A stretch of 64,000 nt of DNA from NCBI GenBank assembly GCA_964424335.1, contig CAYRIY010000003.1, positions 17,727 to 81,726 of the forward strand, read 5' to 3'. The stretch comes from an uncultured Clostridia bacterium (GTDB lineage: Bacteria; Bacillota; Limnochordia; DTU080; RSA5). Positions 640 through 62,579 of this stretch are shown piece after piece; the first letter of the stretch is position 1; the number at the start of each line of letters is the position of its first letter. A model generated the notes under the pieces. It was not told where the DNA came from. It saw only the letters and a program-made list of their open reading frames with translations, and made no database searches. The position numbers were made by a program, and so were the translations under genes.

Positions 640-931
640 ACTTGTCGAACCGTCCTGCGCCGTGATATGATCGTTGTGCGACATGGTTTCCCTGCTATGT
701 GCGTGTTTAAAGTCGGCCTCGTTATGAGCCAACACCGTAACGAGAGGGAGCCCGGACTCCGCATCGCGATGCACATGCCTAGCATGTCTAGGACGTTGCT
801 GACCGACGGGAGGGCACCCACCTGCCGAGGGCAGGTTCATTAACGGCCGACGAAACGGCATAGCGGGGTCTCTTTTTATTCCTCCAAAATTTAACGCGCA
901 ACCTCAATTTTTCCGCGAAACCGCACCGGAG

Positions 932-6213: not shown

Positions 6214-7239
6214 ATGTCACGCCGTGCCAAGCTGATTGTCCTTGTGGCCGCGGCCCTCACGGCGGCGCTCCTCATCTTGCGCGTGCGGGGTGTACTCACG
6301 CCGTTTTTCCTGGGGGGCGCGGTTGCGTACGTAAGTTATCCGCTCGTTCGATTGCTTGAATCCAAACAGGTTCCACGCGGGACGGCGATCCTCTTGGTGT
6401 ACGCCATGTTCGCCGTCTTCGTCATTTTGCTCGTCTACGCCGTTCTCCCAAGCCTGACCCGAGAGCTCGATCAAATGATCGCGATTTTGCCGGAGCAGAC
6501 AAGGAGGCTCGAAGGGCTCACCGACCACGCCCTCAAAGACCTGCAGAAGCTTTGGATGCCGGAGATGTTGCAGGAAGTCGTCAACCTCTCGCTCCGGCGA
6601 GCGGAGGATCTGCTCGGGCGTTTTGCTTCGCGGATCGCAGAGCTGCTTGTAGGGCTGGTCTCGCACGTGTTCAACCTCGTTCTCGCGCCGTTTCTCGCTT
6701 ACTACCTGCTGAGGGATCTCCATTCGATCCAGCGAGCGGCGATCGCGTGGATGCCGAGCGGCGTGCGCAAGGACGTGCTCGACCTTGGTCGCAAGGTGAA
6801 TCACGTCGTGTCGGGGTTTTTGCGCGGCCAGTTGATCGTCTCGTGCATCGTCGGAATACTCGTCGCATCCGGTCTTTCGCTGCTTGGCGTCAAGTACGCC
6901 ATCATCGTCGGGATCTTCGCGGGACTTGCCGACATTATCCCGTACTTTGGCCCGCTCATCAGCGCGGTTCCCGCCGTCGCCCTGGCCCTCACGGTTTCAC
7001 CGTGGACGGCCTTGTGGGTCGTGATCTTGCTCATCGCCATCCAGCAGTTCGAGGGCAGTGTGCTCAGTCCCAAGATCGTGGGGGATCGTGTCGGCCTTCA
7101 CCCGCTCACGGTAATCTTCGCGGTGCTTGCCGGAGGGGAACTGATGGGAATACTTGGAATGCTGATGGCGGTGCCGGTCGCGGCCACTGTCAAGGTCGTC
7201 GCGGCCCACGTGGGAGACCGGATCCTAGAGCGCGGGTAA
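6214..7239 (+). CDS. AI-2E family transporter (PerM/YrrI-like)
   Basis: Multi-TM protein with C-terminal GILGMLMAVPVAA motif; same position relative to alaS as yrrI in B. subtilis. Confidence 0.85.
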   Translation: MSRRAKLIVLVAAALTAALLILRVRGVLTPFFLGGAVAYVSYPLVRLLESKQVPRGTAILLVYAMFAVFVILLVYAVLPSLTRELDQMIAILPEQTRRLEGLTDHALKDLQKLWMPEMLQEVVNLSLRRAEDLLGRFASRIAELLVGLVSHVFNLVLAPFLAYYLLRDLHSIQRAAIAWMPSGVRKDVLDLGRKVNHVVSGFLRGQLIVSCIVGILVASGLSLLGVKYAIIVGIFAGLADIIPYFGPLISAVPAVALALTVSPWTALWVVILLIAIQQFEGSVLSPKIVGDRVGLHPLTVIFAVLAGGELMGILGMLMAVPVAATVKVVAAHVGDRILERG

Positions 7240-7381: not shown

Positions 7382-10048
7382 GTGAAGTCCTTGACTACGG
7401 ACCAACTGCGCGAGACGTACATCCGATTTTTCGAGCGCAAAGGTCACCACGTGGGTGAAAGCGCATCGCTCGTACCGCACGGCGACCCGACGCTCCTGTT
7501 GACGAGCGCCGGCATGGTCCCGTTTAAGCCATACTTTTTGGGCTGGGAGACGCCCAAGCATACGCGCATTACTACGTGCCAGCGTTGCGTTCGCACAGGC
7601 GACATCGACAACGTCGGCAAGACCGATCGACACCATACGTTCTTTGAAATGTTGGGAAATTTTTCCTTTGGTGATTACTTCAAGCAAGAGGCGATCGAGT
7701 TTGCTTGGGAGTTTGTCACCAAGGAGCTCGAATTTGATCCTGAGCGCCTGTGGGTCTCAGTCTACCTCGAGGACGACGAAGCCTACAACATATGGAACAA
7801 GGACATCGGCGTCCCCGAGGAGCGCATCGTGCGGCTCGGAAGGGAAGACAACTTTTGGGAGATCGGCGTGGGGCCGTGCGGACCTTGCTCGGAGATTTAT
7901 TACGACAAGGGCCCCGAGCACGGTTGCGGACGAGCGGAGTGCGCGCCAAGCTGTGACGAGTGCGAGCGGTACCTCGAGATCTGGAACCTCGTCTTCATCC
8001 AATTCCATCAGGATGAGGAGAAGAATCTGACGCCGCTCAAGAGCAAAGGCGTCGACACAGGGATGGGCCTCGAGCGGACGGCCTCGCTGCTTCAGTCCGT
8101 GCCGAGCAACTTCTCGATCGACCTCATTGCACCCATCGTGGAGCACATCGCTTCGATGAGCGGCGTGCAGTACGGCAGCGGCGGAGAGTCGGACGTGAGC
8201 GTCCGCGTCATCACCGACCACATGCGCGGTGTGACGTTCATGGTGGCCGACGGCATCTTGCCCGGCAATGAGGGGCGAGGCTATGTGCTGCGGCGGCTCC
8301 TGCGGCGCTCGGTGCGCCATGCGAGGCTTCTAGGCATCGAAGGTCGCTTTTTGCCGAGCGTCGTCGATCTCGTCATCGACTTGATGAAAGTGGGCTATCC
8401 GTATCTCGAGAGTCAGCGGGAGTACGTCCGCAACGTCGTGGCGACGGAGGAGGCCCGTTTTCACGAAACCCTCGATCAGGGCATGGAGATCCTCGAGCGC
8501 ATGACCGCACGCCTGCGCGAGCAGGGGCGGACGGTGCTTGGCGGCGAGGATGCGTTTCGCCTTTATGACACGTACGGTTTTCCCGTTGAGTTGACGGCGG
8601 AGATCTTGAAAAGCCACGGCTTTGAGTTGGACACGCAAGGGTTTGACGAGGCCATGGAGGCGCAGCGCGAGCGGGCGCGGGCCGCACGCGGCCAGATGGG
8701 CTATTTAGGGGACGTCGACGTCGCGTACGGCGACCTCGACCTTGGCGTGAATCGAACGCCGTTCGTGGGGTATGAGTCCCTAGAAGCACAGACCGAGCTG
8801 ATCGGCCTCGTCGTCAGGGGCGAGCAGGCAGGTCGTGCGGCCGCCGGCGAGCAAATCGAGGCGATTTTGGCGGTTACGCCGTTTTATCCAGAGGGCGGCG
8901 GACAGGTCCCCGACATTGGAACGATCGAAGGCCCAAGCGGCCGGATGCGGGTGGAGAGCGTCAGCAAGGTCGGAGACGGCATCATCGTCCATCGCGGCCA
9001 GGTCGAATCGGGCAGTCTCCAAGTGGGTGACCAGGTGCGCGCCGAGGTCGACGCCGAGCGCCGCAAGGATACGGAGCGCAACCATACGGCGACCCACCTC
9101 ATGCACAAGGCGCTCCACGAAGTGCTCGGCGACCATGCCAATCAGGCGGGATCGCTCGTGGCGCCGGATCGCTTGCGATTTGACTTTACTCACTTTAAAC
9201 CGCTTTCGAGGGACGAGCTCGCCGAGATCGAGCGGCGCGTCAACGAGCGCATCTTGGAAAACCTGCCGGTGACCGACTTTGTCACGGAGTTCGACAAGGC
9301 AAAGGAACTTGGCGCGATGGCCCTTTTTGGCGAGAAGTACGGCGATGAGGTCCGCGTCGTCAAGGTGGGCGAGTACAGCATCGAACTTTGCGGCGGAACC
9401 CACGTCAAATCGAGCTCCGACATAGGCATTTTCCGCATCGTGCAGGAAGGCGGCGTTGCGGCCGGCGTGCGGCGCATCGAGGCGGTGACCGCCCGCGGCG
9501 CGCTCAAGTTTCTGGCAAGCCGCGACGAGGCGCTTCGTGAGGCCGCCGACAAGTTGCAAGTCGCCCCAAGCGACCTGCCAAAACAGCTCGACAAGTTGCT
9601 TGGCGCGATGAAAGAGCAAGAGCGGCAGATCGAGCAGTTGAAGGGTAGGCTTGCGCAGGCGCAGGTCGGATCGTTGGCCGCTCGGGCGGAGGATTTTGGC
9701 GGCATCAAAGTGCTGGCCGCGGACGTCGAAGGGCTCGACATCGATGGCCTTCGCTCGCTTGGCGATCGACTCAAGCAGGAGATGGGAGCGGCGGTCGTCA
9801 TCTTGGGCTCGTCCGATGGCGGCAAGGTGCAGATGGTGGCAATGGCGAGCGACGCCGCCGCCGATCGCAGCGTCGACGTGAAAAAGGCCCTGACGCAGGC
9901 CGCAGCGCTCGTCGGCGGAGGCGGCGGGGGCAATCCCAAGATGGCGCAGGCGGGCGGGAAGGATCCATCTCGCTTGAAAGACGCGCTCGATGATGCCAAG
10001 GATCGCATTGTGCGCCAGCTCTTCGAACGGACGGCGAGCGAGGCGTAA
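7382..10048 (+). CDS. alaS: alanyl-tRNA synthetase
   Basis: 888 aa; class II AlaRS core, editing domain HTATHLMH...CGGTH, C-terminal DHHA1. Confidence 0.95.
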   Translation: MKSLTTDQLRETYIRFFERKGHHVGESASLVPHGDPTLLLTSAGMVPFKPYFLGWETPKHTRITTCQRCVRTGDIDNVGKTDRHHTFFEMLGNFSFGDYFKQEAIEFAWEFVTKELEFDPERLWVSVYLEDDEAYNIWNKDIGVPEERIVRLGREDNFWEIGVGPCGPCSEIYYDKGPEHGCGRAECAPSCDECERYLEIWNLVFIQFHQDEEKNLTPLKSKGVDTGMGLERTASLLQSVPSNFSIDLIAPIVEHIASMSGVQYGSGGESDVSVRVITDHMRGVTFMVADGILPGNEGRGYVLRRLLRRSVRHARLLGIEGRFLPSVVDLVIDLMKVGYPYLESQREYVRNVVATEEARFHETLDQGMEILERMTARLREQGRTVLGGEDAFRLYDTYGFPVELTAEILKSHGFELDTQGFDEAMEAQRERARAARGQMGYLGDVDVAYGDLDLGVNRTPFVGYESLEAQTELIGLVVRGEQAGRAAAGEQIEAILAVTPFYPEGGGQVPDIGTIEGPSGRMRVESVSKVGDGIIVHRGQVESGSLQVGDQVRAEVDAERRKDTERNHTATHLMHKALHEVLGDHANQAGSLVAPDRLRFDFTHFKPLSRDELAEIERRVNERILENLPVTDFVTEFDKAKELGAMALFGEKYGDEVRVVKVGEYSIELCGGTHVKSSSDIGIFRIVQEGGVAAGVRRIEAVTARGALKFLASRDEALREAADKLQVAPSDLPKQLDKLLGAMKEQERQIEQLKGRLAQAQVGSLAARAEDFGGIKVLAADVEGLDIDGLRSLGDRLKQEMGAAVVILGSSDGGKVQMVAMASDAAADRSVDVKKALTQAAALVGGGGGGNPKMAQAGGKDPSRLKDALDDAKDRIVRQLFERTASEA

Positions 10049-26357: not shown

Positions 26358-26545
26358 TCTTATCGTCCCCGTGCCTAAGCGCACAAACGTCTATTTGACG
26401 CTCCCAGTCGTCTTCATGCGGTCATAGAGGAATGTCTTTGTGAGCGCCCGATCTTTTCGGCACGGCCGAGCCGCAAGGCGGACGAAAGGCCAAGCGGGCC
26501 GGCGTCTCTAGCCCTATTTGGGCATGAGGTGGGCCGCATGACAGG

Positions 26546-26668
26546 CGGATTCTCTAAGGAGTCACTCAGCTCGCGGCCCGACTTTGTCGGGCCGGCCAAG
26601 CCACGATCGGATGAAAATCCGCGGGGCGTCAAGTGGGGACGGCAGCCAATCGGATTTTTAAGAGGAGG
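26546..26668 (+). promoter_or_regulatory. copy A of a 123-nt paralogous leader element ending in the accC SD
   Basis: Aligns position-for-position without gaps to 47649..47771 (~82% identity); contains a CGGAU-GAAA-AUCCG hairpin, an internal direct repeat CGGATTYTNTAAGRR at both ends, and AAGAGGAGG at the 3' end. Confidence 0.7.
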
Positions 26669-32803: not shown

Positions 32804-32829
32804 TGGTATAATATAAACGACTTTAGGAT

Positions 32830-33500
32830 AGGTGGTGCAGTATCCTAGTCAGACTTCGGCCTTTGAAGACGGGCCTAAAAATCCGTCGCGGGCACATCGA
32901 TGAAGTCCCTGGTGGTGGCCATCGACGCCCAGTCGGGGGTTGCTGCTGGGGGTTAAGGTGATGGGGCGATCTACAATGGCATGTAGGCGTTGACCCCGTC
33001 TCCGCGGAGACCCACGTCCGTGGGGAACCGCTTGCGTATCGTGCTTCGTGGTTCGGGCGCAAGCGGAGAACTACGGCTTGGGGTTAAACCTGCACGCGAT
33101 GCAAGTCGACAGGTCGGAGGTTCGGACTTGTCGCAAGTGTTGGGTGCAGTGTAGCCTGCCTTGAGTGGCGGGGGTGGGATAGCAGGTATCAGCTCGCTTG
33201 CTTCCATGGCCAGGGAGAAAGTGAGTCCTTGCTGCTTGAAACCCTTACTGCAAAAGAGGCTAGAAGGTTTTGAAGTCTGTCGAGGAAAACTCCTAGGCTG
33301 TTCCCTTGCGGGAGGCCTTGCGGGGATTACGGTGTGGTCTGAGTGGCAATCCAGCCTTGCCGTCGGTGACGCGGCAAAGTGGCCGGAAAGGGGAAACCGC
33401 CGAGGACGGTGACGTCGCGGAGGGCCGCTGGGAAAACCTGCTGGACCTTAAGCCACAATCTTTACTCGCAAGGCTGCCACCTATGCCGTTTTTTCTATTG
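32830..33500 (+). ncRNA. ole: candidate OLE (ornate, large, extremophilic) RNA
   Basis: ~860-nt gap between ispA and dxs with no credible ORF, dense GC-rich helices and GNRA-like loops, ending in a T-run near 33490; ispA-ole-(oapA)-dxs is the described OLE locus; boundaries approximate. Confidence 0.5.
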
Positions 33501-47604: not shown

Positions 47605-47648
47605 AGCATACCTCTACGAACGTCTACATAGATTTCATCGACGGCCAA

Positions 47649-47771
47649 TCGGATTTTATAAGAAGTCACCCACTTGGCCGCCCGACTTTGTCGGTCCGGC
47701 CCAGCCACGAGCGGATGAAAATCCGCGGGTCGGCAAGTGGGGACACATGCTGGACCGATTTTCAAGAGGAG
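47649..47771 (+). promoter_or_regulatory. copy B of the 123-nt paralogous leader element ending in the deacetylase SD
   Basis: Ungapped alignment to 26546..26668; a GCATA-16-CATAGAT forespore-sigma-like promoter lies just upstream (47606..47633). Confidence 0.7.
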
Positions 47772-47779
47772 GTGGGGGC

Positions 47780-48607
47780 GTGTTCGTCGTCTTTCGCATG
47801 CGGAGGATCTTCCTTGCACTTGGGATTGTCGCCGCCGTCGCGCTCTTTGGCCATTACGCCGCCCGTCCACTCGCCCAAGCCGTGGCGACGGCGGTCTCCG
47901 AGCGGAAAGTTCCGATCTACAAAGTCGCCCGTGACGACAACAAGGTCTCCATTTCCCTCGATGCAACGTGGGGCGTGGAGCAGACCGACGAACTCCTCGA
48001 CATCCTCGACCGCCACGGCGTGAAAACGACCTTCTTTCTCGCTGGTTACTGGGTGGAAAAACATCCCGACTACGTGAAAAAGATAGCCGACCGCGGGCAT
48101 GAAATCGGAAATCACTCGTACGAACATCCCCACATGAACGCCCTGACGCGGGAGAAAATCGTGGCGGACCTCAAGCGAAATCACGATCTGTTGAAAGAGA
48201 TCACGGGGCAGGACGCGTTCTTGTTTCGGCCGCCGTTTGGCGAGTACAGCAACAAAGTGATCGAGGCGGCCAGTGAGCTTGGTTACTTTACGATCCAGTG
48301 GTCGATCGACTCGCTCGACTGGAAAGACGTGAGCGCAGACTTCATGGTCAACCGTGTGCTCAGTAACGTCGGCCCGGGAGACATCATCCTTTTTCACAAC
48401 GCAGGCAAGCATACGCCCAAGGCGATCGATGTCTTGCTCGCCCAGCTCAAGTCCCGCGGCTTTGACGTGGTTCCGATCTCCGAATTGATCTACCGAGATC
48501 ATTACCTCATCGAAAGTCACTCCGGAGTCCAGCGAAGACAAGAGCCGCCGCCCGGAGCGAGCGATGATGGGACTCCGCCCGCTCAAAACAGAGGGGATGA
48601 AACGTGA
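47780..48607 (+). CDS. polysaccharide deacetylase (NodB domain, PdaA-like)
   Basis: N-terminal TM plus NodB motifs (SLDATWG, HEIGNHSYEHPH, LFRPPFGEY, IILFH); GTG 7 nt after AAGAGGAGG (ORF opens at ATG 47747 inside the element). Confidence 0.8.
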   Translation: MFVVFRMRRIFLALGIVAAVALFGHYAARPLAQAVATAVSERKVPIYKVARDDNKVSISLDATWGVEQTDELLDILDRHGVKTTFFLAGYWVEKHPDYVKKIADRGHEIGNHSYEHPHMNALTREKIVADLKRNHDLLKEITGQDAFLFRPPFGEYSNKVIEAASELGYFTIQWSIDSLDWKDVSADFMVNRVLSNVGPGDIILFHNAGKHTPKAIDVLLAQLKSRGFDVVPISELIYRDHYLIESHSGVQRRQEPPPGASDDGTPPAQNRGDET

Positions 48608-49392
48608 ATCAAGGCTCGCTTCGCGTCATGGTGATTACACGAAAGCACCTCTATGTCTGTTTGGCTGTGATTGGGCTCATGGCCGGCATCATCAAAGGGC
48701 TCGGCGCCGTTTCGCCGACTGCTCCTGCGACGACGGCGAATGAAGGCGGCGTCGCCATTTTGTCGCAAGATCAGCCGGTGCGCCAAGTTCCGGGGCGTTC
48801 CGGTGAAATGGCGTTTACGGTCAACGTCGATTGGGGAAACGAAGTGTTGGTCGATATGCTCGACGTCTTCGACCGGTACGGCGTCAAAGTGACGTTTTTT
48901 CTGACGGGCCGCTGGGCAAAGGCTTTCCCTGAAATGGCCGCGGAGCTCGCGCGACGCGGACATGAAATCGGCAACCACGGCGTCTCACACGCCCATCCGA
49001 CTCAGCTTTCGGCATCCGATCTCAGAAAGCACATCGGCGATAACGTCGAGATCTTGCGCGCAGCTACAGGCGTCGAACCGGTGCCCCTTTACGCGCCTCC
49101 ATACGGAGAGCAGGACGGGCGGGTCGTGAGTGAAGCGGCAGGGTTAGGACACTGGACGACGCTGTGGACGCTCGATACGATCGATTGGCAAAACCCTTCG
49201 CCCGACACGATCTACAGGCGGATCGTGCCCCGGGCGGCTGATGGCGCCATCGTGTTGATGCATCCAAAGCCACAGACCCTCGAAGCGCTCCCGCGCATGA
49301 TCGAGGGTCTGAAAGAGAACGGTTACACGCTCGTGCCTCTACATGAGTTGATCGTGGGCGCGGCGCCTTTGCCTTTGGAAAATCCGTCCTAA
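48604..49392 (+). CDS. polysaccharide deacetylase (NodB domain, PdaB-like), tandem paralog
   Basis: NodB motifs (TVNVDWG, HEIGNHGVSHAHP, LYAPPYGE, IVLMHP); GTG start overlaps the upstream stop. Confidence 0.8.
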   Translation: MNQGSLRVMVITRKHLYVCLAVIGLMAGIIKGLGAVSPTAPATTANEGGVAILSQDQPVRQVPGRSGEMAFTVNVDWGNEVLVDMLDVFDRYGVKVTFFLTGRWAKAFPEMAAELARRGHEIGNHGVSHAHPTQLSASDLRKHIGDNVEILRAATGVEPVPLYAPPYGEQDGRVVSEAAGLGHWTTLWTLDTIDWQNPSPDTIYRRIVPRAADGAIVLMHPKPQTLEALPRMIEGLKENGYTLVPLHELIVGAAPLPLENPS

Positions 49393-50693
49393 ACCAAATT
49401 GTTGCGGATCACGGACCATATCCCCGGATCCTCTTGACCGAGTCGCCACAGGGAGATGCCTGCGAGGCCGTACTTTTTCACGAGCTCGATCTTGTGCGAG
49501 ACGCTCGAGCGGTCCTCGAAGTACACCGTCCTGCCTGCGCCGTATTTGAAATACGGCACTTTGGCGACGTCGTCCCACTGAATGCGGGCCCCATGAGCGC
49601 TCGCCAATTCCATCGCCTGCCGATACGTCACCGATCGACCGCGGCCGCTCGCAGGCCAATCGTACCCGTACGCCGGGATGCCAAGCACGATCTTCTCGGG
49701 CGGCACGCCGGTCGATATCGCATACCGGACGACGCGCTCGACCCAGCCGATCGACGCGACGGGGCCGGGTGGGCCGCCACGCCAGTGTTCGTCGTAGGTC
49801 ATGAGCATCATCTGGTCCACGTACTGGCCGATCGTGCCGTAGTCAAATCCGCCCGCCCACGTGCTCGAAATATCGTTGTAGGTCTTGGACGGAACGGCAA
49901 TCGTAACCGAGAGGCCCGCGGGCCCTAGCCGCTCTGAAAGCGCCTTGATGAACAGATTGAGATTTTGTCGATCGCTTGGGAGCACCATCTCGAAATCGAT
50001 GTGCACTCCGGACATGTCCCACTCGCGCAGCACTCGGTAAATGTCTTCGACGGCGTTTTGCCTCGACTGGGCGTTCGCGAGCACCGCGTGGGAAAGACTT
50101 ACATCAAAGTTGACCTCGCCGGATTGAGTCTGGCGAATGTTGTGCACGAGCGCAAGACTTTTTAGCCCGTTCTCGCCTGCCACCCGGAGCGCTTGCCCAA
50201 CGTCGCGGGCGTCGAATGAAAGGTTCATGTAGCCGCTGGGCAACACTTCCCACATCCAGGGGACGAGCGTCGTGATCACGTCCAGGTTTTCTCGCAGCGA
50301 CGGCCCGGACGGGCGAAGCGAGTCCGTGACGTAGTAGGCGACGACATCGTATTTGCCGCGCCTTGCTTGAGTGTTGGAGGTGTGGCTCGTTGAAACAGCG
50401 AAGGTATTGACGTAGCCTACCTGGCCGTTCGCAAGTCGTACGCGGTACCAGCCGTTTGTTTCGTCAAGGACGGTCAACGAGTCGCCTCGGACAAGCGTCG
50501 CGATGACCTCATCGCTGCGCGGAACCTCGTGAACGGACACTTTGTTGGCCCGGATGACGCCCGGACGTTCATTTTGGGTCGAAATCACGGCCGGCGCATC
50601 TGTATGGGACGGGGCATTTTTCGGGCCACCTCCTAGGAAGCCTCCCGTCAAGAGGAGTATAGATAGTAGTGTGATGAGGGCAGTCTGGGACAA
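49389..50693 (-). CDS. GH18 glycoside hydrolase with N-terminal SH3b-like domain (YdhD/YaaH-like spore peptidoglycan hydrolase)
   Basis: Signal peptide, SH3b (GDSLTVLDETNGWYRVRL), GH18 catalytic DGVHIDFE; TTG after GAGGAGG; its stop overlaps the convergent deacetylase stop. Confidence 0.8.
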   Translation of the reverse strand: MSQTALITLLSILLLTGGFLGGGPKNAPSHTDAPAVISTQNERPGVIRANKVSVHEVPRSDEVIATLVRGDSLTVLDETNGWYRVRLANGQVGYVNTFAVSTSHTSNTQARRGKYDVVAYYVTDSLRPSGPSLRENLDVITTLVPWMWEVLPSGYMNLSFDARDVGQALRVAGENGLKSLALVHNIRQTQSGEVNFDVSLSHAVLANAQSRQNAVEDIYRVLREWDMSGVHIDFEMVLPSDRQNLNLFIKALSERLGPAGLSVTIAVPSKTYNDISSTWAGGFDYGTIGQYVDQMMLMTYDEHWRGGPPGPVASIGWVERVVRYAISTGVPPEKIVLGIPAYGYDWPASGRGRSVTYRQAMELASAHGARIQWDDVAKVPYFKYGAGRTVYFEDRSSVSHKIELVKKYGLAGISLWRLGQEDPGIWSVIRNNLV

Positions 50694-53668: not shown

Positions 53669-53835
53669 CCGCGTCCTGCTCACCGCTGGGAGTCGAAAGG
53701 GCTCGGAGCATCCCGAGCCCTTTCGCTGCCTCGTTGTCAGCGCCCGTCACGGGCTAGGCAATGGTTGACAAGCCTTTCCCAATGAGGCAAAATGGGCTTA
53801 AAAGAATCCAATTGCAGACTAACTGCGAGGGCCAT

Positions 53836-53996
53836 AGAGGCGCGAGAGACAAGAGTAGGGTCGTTGAGGCAAGGGCAGCCAGTGAAGCGACCGCGAAAGG
53901 GGATCTCGCCGAAGTTCGACTTTTCGCCCGGTAAAGTCGGACTGGGGTGGCGGCAAAGAGCCGTCGCACTGCCACCGTGATCGGTGGAGCGCTATC
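53836..53996 (+). promoter_or_regulatory. lysine riboswitch (L-box) aptamer
   Basis: L-box blocks in order: AGAGGCGCGAG...AGAGTAGGG, GAAAGGGGATCTCGCCGAAG, GTCGCACTG, GGTGGAGCGCTATCC, all close to the B. subtilis lysC leader. Confidence 0.8.
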
Positions 53997-54026
53997 CCGG
54001 CAGCACGAAAAGGGCTTATAGCGTTC

Positions 54027-61685: not shown

Positions 61686-62408
61686 CTAGCCGATGGGCGG
61701 AGGAAAGGGGCCCCAGACGATGGGGCCTTTTTTCTTAGCGGGAGCATCGGGCTGGCTCTGTGGCTGGGGCGAGACCCTAGAGGACACGCGCTCTTCATTG
61801 ACGTTCTCTTGGCCTTTGTCCGCTTGGTCTATGGTTGACGGGTCGGTGTGGTTAATTGAGCCGTAGAGATCGTGGTACTCCTCGGGAGTGGGCTTCCGTG
61901 TCGCGACGGGTTCGTCGATGCCGACTTCCTTTTCCGGCGAAGAACCGGTGCGAACTTGTGAAATCCGGGTCTCGCCCTTGGCCCAGTCCGATGGCCGCTC
62001 TTGCTCGTCGGATTGCTTATTTGTCCCAGGAGACCTGCGGTCCGAAACGGTAAGTTCGACCGTGATTTGATGCTGGAATTCGCCTGTGATCGGATCGTAT
62101 GTGTGATCTGAGCGGAGTTCACCCAAGGCGACGTCCGCGTGTTGGACCGGAATCGATCCGACGCCGATTCGGCTCGAAAACGGGATGTAAAATCCTTGCC
62201 CGGCGACGTCACGACCGCGAGTGTTGCGGCAGTATACATACGCGCGCACGCCGCCCTTGACCAAGATCCGGTTGGGTCCGTCGAGATCGCACTTGAGCGG
62301 ATCGGCTTCGAGCCGTACATCGAGGACCTCCGCGACGTTTTCGAGGCGACCGCCGCCATGTAGCACGATCGTTGCCCTCTCGATCGGGCGGCTCTCTTCT
62401 ATGCCCAT
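61686..62408 (-). CDS. hypothetical protein with a structured N-terminal domain and a P/Q/E-rich disordered C-terminal tail
   Basis: 240-aa minus-strand ORF with its own intergenic region; no family assigned; its 3' end runs through the terminator hairpin. Confidence 0.5.
   Translation of the reverse strand: MGIEESRPIERATIVLHGGGRLENVAEVLDVRLEADPLKCDLDGPNRILVKGGVRAYVYCRNTRGRDVAGQGFYIPFSSRIGVGSIPVQHADVALGELRSDHTYDPITGEFQHQITVELTVSDRRSPGTNKQSDEQERPSDWAKGETRISQVRTGSSPEKEVGIDEPVATRKPTPEEYHDLYGSINHTDPSTIDQADKGQENVNEERVSSRVSPQPQSQPDAPAKKKGPIVWGPFPPPIG
61705..61735. terminator. bidirectional rho-independent terminator
   Basis: AAGGGGCCCCA-GACGA-TGGGGCC followed by TTTTTTCTT on the + strand; overlaps the last codons of the minus-strand ORF. 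Confidence 0.7.
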
Positions 62409-62579
62409 GGACGTTCTACGCTCCTTGTGAAAAAACGATTGGCTGCCGTCCCCACTTATCGAGCGCTCTCCTAGAGTTACATCTATTCAACCGCGCCAGA
62501 AACTAACATCGTTTTTGGACGGATCGTGCCCTATCATGGGGATATGTCGGCACAACACTTGAAAAAGGAGTGCGTGCAC

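Follow-up and report, generated by a model that had tools for sequence, protein, structure and literature searches.

Why does the same 123-nt sequence stand directly before two genes with no common function, accC and the first of two tandem polysaccharide deacetylase genes, in the 64,000-nt stretch of contig CAYRIY010000003.1 (uncultured Clostridia bacterium) that we refer to as the window? An earlier note on this DNA had taken the two sequences, copy A before accC and copy B before the deacetylase, for a conserved leader that co-ordinates post-transcriptional control of both genes during sporulation. Our analysis points elsewhere. We consider it probable, with odds of roughly three in four, that copy B is one unit of a selfish, multicopy intergenic repeat that carries its own Shine-Dalgarno (SD) sequence, and that it is not a sporulation-specific regulatory RNA. 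The traits we observed are lineage-specific presence, multiple copies that may be near-identical, tandem, truncated or decayed, unrelated downstream genes, and insertion at SDs.

Copies A and B (26546–26668 and 47650–47772) make up the one repeat family that a repeat finder detected in the whole window. They are 81% identical over 123 nt without a gap, and the register of the alignment is maintained through both start codons. Their local alignment scores 134, as against at most 44 for chance 18-mer matches elsewhere. The window was also scanned, without filters, with a covariance model built from nine distinct units, which gives copy B 144 bits (E = 1e-48) and copy A 121 bits (E = 2.5e-40). 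Copy B itself, the position of its SD and the tandem deacetylases are all as the earlier note described them, according to the repeat finder, direct reading and protein models. Its statement that the flanking sequence is unrelated needs correction: a truncated unit tail lies to the left of copy B, and a degenerate unit lies directly upstream of copy A.

The deacetylase locus is recognizable in related species, in which the first deacetylase has 70% (L001 and L002), 76% (L003 and L004) or 79% (L005) protein identity. Gene order is kept in L001, L003 and L005 (helicase, two deacetylases, a GH18-SH3 gene and an M16 peptidase). None of these three loci has the repeat upstream of the deacetylase orthologue, although the promoter-like motif, the SD and the GTG start codon are all retained; the -10-like box stands 145 nt before the start in the window, as against 33–79 nt in the orthologous loci. 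The same is true of accC. The repeat is missing upstream of the orthologue in L100, L101 and L102, although gene order, SD and start codon are retained, and the accB–accC spacer is 318 nt long in the window, as against 79 nt in L101 (AccC 90% identical), 68 nt in L100 (85%) and 37 nt in L102 (74%). The earlier note had called the leader conserved and had said that absence of the element from such orthologues would refute it. That absence is what we find, at both genes.

Two loci, accC and thrS, allow filled and empty sites to be compared at base resolution. At accC, the empty site in related species reads ...ATAGGAGGA joined directly to CTGTCGTTG, and then the start codon. In the window, ...ATAGAGGA is followed by 238 nt, comprising a degenerate unit and an intact unit ending in AAGAGGAGGA, and then by CTGTCGTTG; the degenerate unit begins right behind the displaced native SD, ATAGAGGA, at 26424–26431. 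At thrS, the empty site in L103 has a T-box leader and then ...GTTTAGAGGAGGAGTGTCTCATG, and the filled site in L057 reads CTTAGAGGAG, the unit, and ...TTTAGAGGAGGAGCATAGGTATG. The L057 contig is cut inside the unit, which sits at the thrS SD and presumably downstream of the T-box. Judging from these alignments, insertion took place exactly at the native SD at the compared sites, leaving an SD-like motif upstream, and the unit's own SD now serves the gene. The insertions have SD-like motifs to the left and to the right, namely GAGGA at accC, TTAGAGGAG (at least 9 nt) at thrS in L057, CGAAGGAG in L078 and CAAAGGAG in L090. The two borders of one copy are often alike; the length that they share varies from copy to copy, and the motif also belongs to the unit tail. 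At the deacetylase locus, native sequence restarts after the copy B SD at TGGGGGCGTG, which is common to L003 and L005. In L103, the T-box leader of thrS lies at 9722–9964, and a ZTP riboswitch is found nearby (6334–6416).

How many copies of the unit are there? A metagenome collection was scanned with a core 18-mer, and the loci so obtained were searched by nhmmer and the covariance model; the copy census therefore covers the 64-kb window and short metagenome contigs. The scan returned 56 matches, 10 of which extend across the whole element, and these loci contain about 13 distinct units at no fewer than 10 loci. The true metagenome copies come from JGI samples Ga0182742, Ga0180215 and Ga0180216; the first of these also holds L042, a strain of the deacetylase locus that is 99% identical to the window. 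Copy A recurs in L073 and L099, and L042 carries copy B of another strain. Several units are almost identical to one another. Some form head-to-tail arrays, with three units in L078 (periods of 105 and 107 nt) and at least two in L047. Seven contigs (L047, L056, L057, L058, L069, L078 and L099) end inside a unit, as expected when an assembler meets a multicopy repeat. The arrays at L078 (1–325, minus strand) and L047 (1614–1782, plus strand) are different loci with the same arrangement, a consensus unit and then a divergent type-2 unit; hence this dimer seems to have been copied as a block.

The repeat is, as far as can be seen, restricted to a Limnochordia-like lineage of Bacillota. Among 185,579 species-representative genomes, the 18-mer CGGATGAAAATCCGCGGG has 36 matches, all of them chance and none extending past the seed, in a search that diverged copies would escape. 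Hence that collection includes neither the source genome nor a species representative with this exact 18-mer. The consensus unit has no blastn match in plasmid and phage collections, and about 65 kb of DNA from related species contains no unit. The relatives are annotated as Limnochordia, Limnochordales or Bacillota metagenome-assembled genomes.

The genes that follow the units have no common function. They encode AccC, a PdaB-like deacetylase, a PCuAC copper chaperone, a sugar-isomerase-like TIM-barrel protein, threonyl-tRNA synthetase (ThrRS), a ROK regulator, and the product of an open reading frame (ORF) without a family. What the loci share is position. At all seven for which the start codon is known, five with full units and two with truncated ones, the terminal SD lies 7–12 nt before the start, in the sense orientation. 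The SD of copy A, GGAGG at 26664–26668, is 7 nt before the TTG (26676) of accC, a gene identified as biotin carboxylase by Pfam and preceded by accB. A truncated unit on the minus strand likewise provides an SD 12 nt before the ATG (62408–62406) of ORF 61686–62408, which matches no Pfam family. Co-ordinated control of accC and the deacetylase, as proposed in the earlier note, is hard to reconcile with an element that is absent at orthologues, precedes unrelated genes, forms arrays and leaves decayed fragments. Neither a dedicated ligand-sensing or sporulation-specific role for the unit nor a functional coupling of the two genes is supported.

Comparison of the window with strain L042 bears on constraint. 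Copy B differs at 7 of 132 positions (5.3%) and the flanks at 9 of 1019 (0.9%), a rate about six times faster in the copy. Copy B thus appears to evolve about as fast as unconstrained sequence, which argues against strong constraint. In copy A, the window and L073 do not differ. Of the seven changes in copy B, two form a reciprocal G/C swap at positions 47651 and 47756, which are 105 nt apart: on the left CGGATTTT becomes CCGATTTT in L042, and on the right CCGATTTT becomes CGGATTTT. A possible 6-bp closing helix (AAUCGG with CCGAUU) is retained. Either this helix has been kept, or the two strains have retained different registers of an older two-unit array. L042 also has a GAGA loop, still of the GNRA type, in place of GAAA, and it has AAGGAG where the remnant left of copy B in the window has AAGAAG. 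The features of the window and the single units found elsewhere are collected in the table.

Table. Repeat units and neighbouring features in the window (positions of the 64-kb stretch) and single units on metagenome contigs
Feature	Position or locus	Strand	Basis and remarks
Degenerate older unit, accB–accC spacer	~26432..26560	+	Covariance-model match 26445-26501, E 6e-5; empty sites L101 and L100 compared
Copy A, core 26561-26640 and type-b tail 26641-26668	26561..26668	+	Repeat finder, covariance model, empty-site comparison
Promoter-like motif GCATA-N16-CATAGAT, sporulation-sigma type	47606..47633	+	Native to the locus, outside the repeat; read directly
5'-truncated remnant of a type-b unit tail, GACGGCCAATCGGATTTTATAAGAAG, with decayed SD-like AAGAAG at its end	47640..47665	+	Resembles type-b tail GACGGCAGCCAATCGGATTTTTAAGAGGAG
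Copy B core	47665..47744	+	RNAalifold consensus of nine units, 95% of cells paired; covariance-model match 47647-47772, 144 bits
Copy B tail, type a, ACATGCTGGACCGATTTTCAAGAGGAGG	47745..47772	+	Holds ATG 47747; SD GGAGG 47768-47772, 7 nt before GTG 47780
NodB polysaccharide deacetylase 1, PdaB-like, GTG start	47780..48607	+	TIGR02764 215 bits (cut-off 237); PF01522
NodB polysaccharide deacetylase 2, YlxY/PdaB-like	48604..49392	+	Overlaps the stop of deacetylase 1; gene pair also in L001 and L003
Truncated unit, core 3' end and type-b tail AAGTGGGGACGGCAGCCAATCGTTTTTTCACAAGGAG	62421..62457	-	Covariance-model match 62420-62498, E 0.016
Single unit before PCuAC copper chaperone gene	L090/L058		
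Single unit before xylose-isomerase-like TIM-barrel protein gene	L069		
Single unit before threonyl-tRNA synthetase gene (thrS)	L057		
Single unit before ROK-family regulator gene	L068		

The unit is about 105 nt long and consists of an 80-nt core and a U-rich tail of about 25 nt that terminates in an SD-like AAGGAG(G). In the RNAalifold consensus, the core ends form a 17-bp inverted repeat with two bulges, GUC.CCCACUU.GCCGCCC/GGG.GCGGCAAGUGGG.GAC, around two small hairpins. In copy B the bulged 17-bp repeat is GUC.CCCACUU.GCCGCCC with GGG.(U)CGGCAAGUGGG.GAC, and one of the hairpins inside it is GCGGAU-GAAA-AUCCGC. The tail occurs in two variants, ACATGCCAGACGGATTTTCGAAGGAG and GGCAGCCAATCGGATTTTTAGAGGAG, both of which end in the SD-like motif; type b, GACGGCAGCCAATCGGATTTTTAAGAGGAG, is the tail of copy A and of L057 and L068. 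In arrays, the SD-like end of one unit doubles as the left border of the next. The outer ends of the unit are direct repeats (...AAGGAG on either side) and the inverted repeat is internal, with ...AAGGA immediately to its left and ACATGCC or GGCAGCC immediately to its right. In the tail, the motif UUUUCGAAGG is nearly self-complementary. It contains the palindrome TTCGAA (as at the L078 junction TTTTCGAAGGAG), so the left and right unit borders could pair in RNA; the variants CAAAGG and TAGAGG disrupt this palindrome.

Does the unit act as a structured RNA? The 5' segment CACUUGGCCGCC can pair either with the middle segment CGGCCAAG or with the 3' segment GGCGGCAAGUGGG, giving two strong, mutually exclusive predicted folds. 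Over the nine distinct units, 95% of cells are paired in the long stem and 91% in the alternative hairpin. Three of the four units folded have a predicted folding z of about -2.8 to -3.0. The sequences vary little. The long stem shows two double compensatory changes, both in the divergent unit 2 of L078, and 35 of 500 shuffles score as high; for the alternative hairpin, with a single double change, 303 of 500 do. We consider the covariation weak, and the variation among units too scarce to prove selection on structure. The earlier note had proposed a check of covariation and copy number; there are more than two copies, and the covariation is weak. The only double compensatory changes seen occur in the type-2 unit. 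The predicted probability that the SD is unpaired ranges from 0.02 to 0.68 between copies, an inconsistent pattern for which we dropped the idea of designed SD sequestration or exposure. Searches of Rfam 15 gave nothing relevant to the unit: at gathering score on the window neither copy is matched, and at E values up to 10 the two copies have matches at chance level only. A consensus scan found neither a sigma-70 promoter nor an intrinsic terminator within or at the units. The frame in phase with the downstream gene is not open in every unit: it contains stops in three of five units (L090, L057 and L068) and is open in copies A and B.

These observations have to be set against other explanations. 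The unit could be a cis-regulatory RNA that acts as a riboswitch or is bound by a protein or small RNA (sRNA), in a regulon that includes accC and the deacetylases, with CACUUGGCCGCC switching partners between CGGCCAAG and GGCGGCAAGUGGG. Such an RNA would be expected to lie in sense in 5' leaders and to end at the SD, as the units always do, and to be strongly structured, as the z values and paired fractions predict. The U-to-G change in the 5' segment of L078 unit 2 is matched by A-to-C in both candidate partners, and the GNRA tetraloop is retained in L042. We nevertheless regard a regulatory RNA as unlikely. The unit is absent from six orthologous loci in species at 70–90% protein identity, and the genes it precedes are functionally unrelated. 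Many near-identical copies indicate recent spread, not ancient conservation, and some copies are decayed or truncated. Covariation does not exceed that of shuffles for the alternative hairpin and is marginal for the long stem, SD accessibility follows no consistent pattern, Rfam has no match, and copy B changes between strains at about the rate of unconstrained sequence. Less probable still is a classical MITE (miniature transposable element with inverted repeats) derived from an insertion sequence with a DDE transposase, in which the 17-bp repeat would be the terminal inverted repeats and the SD motif the target-site duplication. Size (about 80–105 nt), inverted-repeat length (about 17–19 bp), multiple copies, assembly breaks, and presence or absence between species all fit this description. 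However, the inverted repeat is not terminal: the conserved tail of about 25 nt, in one of its two variants, follows the right arm in every copy, and the sequences next to the repeat are unlike on the two sides. Moreover, the orientation strictly follows the downstream gene, whereas MITEs insert both ways; head-to-tail arrays with a single shared junction are atypical of cut-and-paste insertion; and the plasmid and phage collections hold no related insertion sequence.

We give very little weight to the possibility that the element is translated, either within a deacetylase lengthened at its N-terminus by a start at ATG 47747 or as a small ORF coupled to the downstream gene, as in mycobacterial interspersed repetitive units (MIRU). 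ATG 47747 shares the frame of GTG 47780, copies A and B are open in phase, a small ORF in L090 runs from a tail ATG to an ATGA overlap with the downstream start, and the ENA gene call P0361 (493 aa) passes through the element into AccC. Against this, stops lie in phase in L090, L057 and L068, the type-b tail has no ATG, the periods of an array differ (105, then 107 nt), and the orthologues without the element start at a conserved GTG behind a conserved SD. We rejected the coding hypothesis on this frame analysis, with its in-phase stops in three of five units. Finally, a one-off duplication of a leader between genes inside the 64-kb region would explain why the window has only two full copies, 21 kb apart. 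It is refuted for practical purposes by the unit's presence at eight or more other loci on contigs from this organism, tandem arrays among them, and by the additional fragments in the window.

How, then, would a selfish repeat of this kind spread? We infer that the element is non-autonomous. It would be copied into SD-like targets by a recombinase or transposase encoded elsewhere and acting in trans; alternatively, short-homology recombination between the SD-bearing tail of a unit and resident SDs might suffice. Unequal exchange would lengthen and shrink the arrays. The element would be tolerated, and so persist, because the gene gets back a ribosome-binding site that works. In front of the deacetylase, the unit would have inserted downstream of a conserved sporulation-type promoter and ahead of the start codon, and would be transcribed as most of a 5' untranslated region (5' UTR) of about 145 nt, as against about 33–79 nt in the orthologues. 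The RNA is predicted to form a stable, bulged stem-loop in this 5' UTR, or in the accB–accC spacer, and could incidentally shift mRNA stability or translation.

Several points weigh against a selfish repeat. In the roughly 64 kb of sequence and the short contigs, we found neither a transposase or recombinase nor an autonomous parent element. The ends of the unit carry no inverted repeats (the 17-bp repeat lies inside it, with the tail behind), and no target-site duplication has a clean, constant length. Function or selection, and not targeting, could explain why orientation and position are so strict at all seven loci whose start is known. There are also hints of constraint at the level of RNA or of a single strand: the double compensatory changes in L078, G-U wobbles on the sense strand, a GAAA-to-GAGA change that stays within GNRA, and a G/C swap that keeps the possible 6-bp closing helix. 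In addition, copy number is known only from the window and short contigs.

A more specific proposal is that the units belong to a mobile element that homes to SD sequences, regenerates an SD at its own 3' end and so shares a stem-loop handle among mRNAs. We view this as possible but doubtful. If it is true, the 5' leaders of essential genes (accC and thrS) could have been colonized without inactivation, and many unrelated mRNAs would have gained the same 17-bp stem-loop, through which a nuclease, a protein or an sRNA might exert post-transcriptional control on a global scale. In that case, an intermediate of single-stranded DNA or RNA, required for movement or for function, would lie behind the three-way complementarity of the 5', middle and 3' segments and behind the compensatory changes. 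SD targeting, if real, would be an unusual insertion specificity.

From which promoter is the deacetylase transcribed? The motif GCATA-N16-CATAGAT directly follows the stop codon of a DinG/YoaA-type helicase gene, and [G/A]NATA-N16-CATA occurs with the same spacing in the window, in the near-identical strain L042 and in the species-level loci L005, L001 and L003. It has no sigma-70 match. Sporulation-type transcription is plausible, judged from the motif, because this is native to the locus and conserved. The earlier note had likened it to promoters of the forespore sigma factors F and G. In the consensus table for Bacillus subtilis, the sigma-G/F -35 element is GNATA, the sigma-G -10 element is CAWAMTA and the sigma-E -10 element is KCATANANTN (PMC3416734). 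By this consensus, the window's -35 element, GCATA, fits GNATA, and its -10 element, CATAGAT, fits sigma-G at 4 of 7 positions and the CATANANT part of sigma-E at every specified position. In Clostridioides difficile, PdaA is dependent on sigma-G and other deacetylases on sigma-E (PMC3789822). Thus the motif and its N16 spacing stand, but the forespore assignment is not secure, because the -10 element fits sigma-E better, the gene is PdaB-like, and the C. difficile deacetylases apart from PdaA depend on sigma-E.

The choice of start codon is clearer. The deacetylase orthologues P0001 and P0012 are called at 275 aa, and their genes have ...GGGGCGTG(T/G)TC and then GTG in the corresponding position. 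ATG 47747 shares a frame with GTG 47780, but it lies in the insertion that the orthologues lack, and it is the SD and the GTG that they conserve; the earlier preference for GTG 47780 is upheld. Both proteins belong to NodB/Polysacc_deac_1, and their best models are PdaB and YlxY, which are sporulation proteins, with scores under the curated cut-offs. The earlier label of PdaA/PdaB-like deacetylases therefore holds for NodB and PdaB, and gene 1 is not PdaA-like by the protein models. Some of the top homologues of deacetylase 1 (among P0002–P0017) are 465–481 aa long, with about 46–65% identity over 83–97% of the query, a length that suggests fusion of the two tandem genes, giving a single protein, in some related organisms.

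Convergent with the deacetylase pair is a gene for a GH18 glycosyl hydrolase with an N-terminal SH3 domain (49389–50693, minus strand), an arrangement kept in L001 and L003. In the related locus L100, the spoIIIA operon lies upstream of accB; with the GH18-SH3 gene, this makes for a neighbourhood rich in sporulation genes. At accC, the gene caller in another assembly ran AccC 46 residues upstream through the repeat (P0361 in ENA, from the window's AccC cluster), and in copy A the in-phase frame is open from GTG 26529. This extension is likely an annotation artefact caused by the element. Elsewhere, the window encodes a full-length OLE (ornate large extremophilic) RNA at 32816–33496 (plus strand; 486 bits, E = 1.7e-139), which fits an extremophile or anaerobe-type Bacillota source. 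A lysine riboswitch aptamer (53827–54002, plus strand, 104 bits) and a 6S RNA (686–873, plus strand, 80 bits) also exceed their Rfam gathering scores.

What does this mean for the locus? A sporulation riboregulator linking lipid synthesis to cortex modification is removed as unsupported, and in its place comes the picture of a repeat, specific to one lineage, that inserts at ribosome-binding sites and takes over from them. The presence of the element before accC and thrS without harm shows that 5' UTRs can be rewritten quickly. There is also a practical side: repeats of this kind break assemblies (seven contigs here), mislead gene callers (AccC at 493 aa) and mimic conserved leaders in motif searches.

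How does the unit compare with known systems? It resembles riboswitches and T-box-type leaders in being a structured 5' leader that extends up to the SD, can be tandem and has alternative pairings. It differs from them in that orthologous loci lack it, its gene set is incoherent, its paralogous copies are near-identical, and it has no Rfam family. The thrS gene of a related species has a normal T-box, to which the unit is an addition at the SD. Like MITEs (Correia, RUP and ERIC elements) and REP/BIME sequences, the unit is a small, multicopy, structured, non-coding intergenic repeat that is co-transcribed with its neighbours; repeats of this sort can influence the processing or stability of an mRNA. 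Unlike them, it has no terminal inverted repeats and no fixed target-site duplication, lies strictly in sense at an SD, and is much longer than REP palindromes. PATE, the elements derived from IS200/IS605, have similar hairpins just inside both ends and insert 3' of a short, specific target that is not duplicated, in genomes with a Y1 transposase. Insertion directly 3' of GGAG would be compatible with this, but the two hairpins near the ends are unrelated in sequence. On anatomy, the MITE, REP, IS200/IS605, integron attC, retron and ribozyme readings fit poorly: the ends are not inverted, the hairpins are dissimilar and there is no GTTRRRY core; for the retron and ribozyme readings, we saw no reverse transcriptase and no ribozyme matches.

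Putative mobile promoters are upstream segments of 50–100 nt with at least 80% identity that precede non-homologous genes in one genome (Matus-Garcia et al. 2012, PMC3488235). The pair of copies A and B falls within this definition, but the category is operational and silent on mechanism, and here an SD and a structured core have been propagated with no promoter. MIRU repeats, which Supply et al. reportedly described in 1997, are said to be units of about 40–100 bp that form variable tandem arrays in operon spacers, oriented like the flanking genes, with small ORFs that overlap the ends of those genes and so couple translation. The unit shares with these the tandem, co-oriented arrangement in an operon spacer (a degenerate and an intact unit between accB and accC; compare three units in L078 and two in L047), but it has no consistent reading frame, and it has a long inverted repeat and a terminal SD.

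The Neisseria REP2 repeats and the IR sequences of Borrelia plasmids are about 120–150 bp long, have no terminal inverted repeats, and are predicted to form two internal RNA stem-loops; ORFs of diverse function follow them directly and use the ribosome-binding site that they bring along, plus a promoter and ATG (Delihas 2011 review, PMC3184786). REP and Correia elements are reported there to affect mRNA stability or translation. Our unit likewise lies directly upstream of ORFs, supplies the SD, contains internal hairpins and lacks terminal inverted repeats. In contrast to REP2 and the Borrelia IR, it has no sigma-70 promoter, the start codons (GTG, TTG and ATG) are native to the genes, and it forms head-to-tail arrays and sits exactly at a former SD; the likeness, which spans different phyla, is one of layout. 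On the best reading, we would therefore place the unit closest in kind to the Neisseria REP2 and mycobacterial MIRU repeats, as an undescribed family within a known kind of element.

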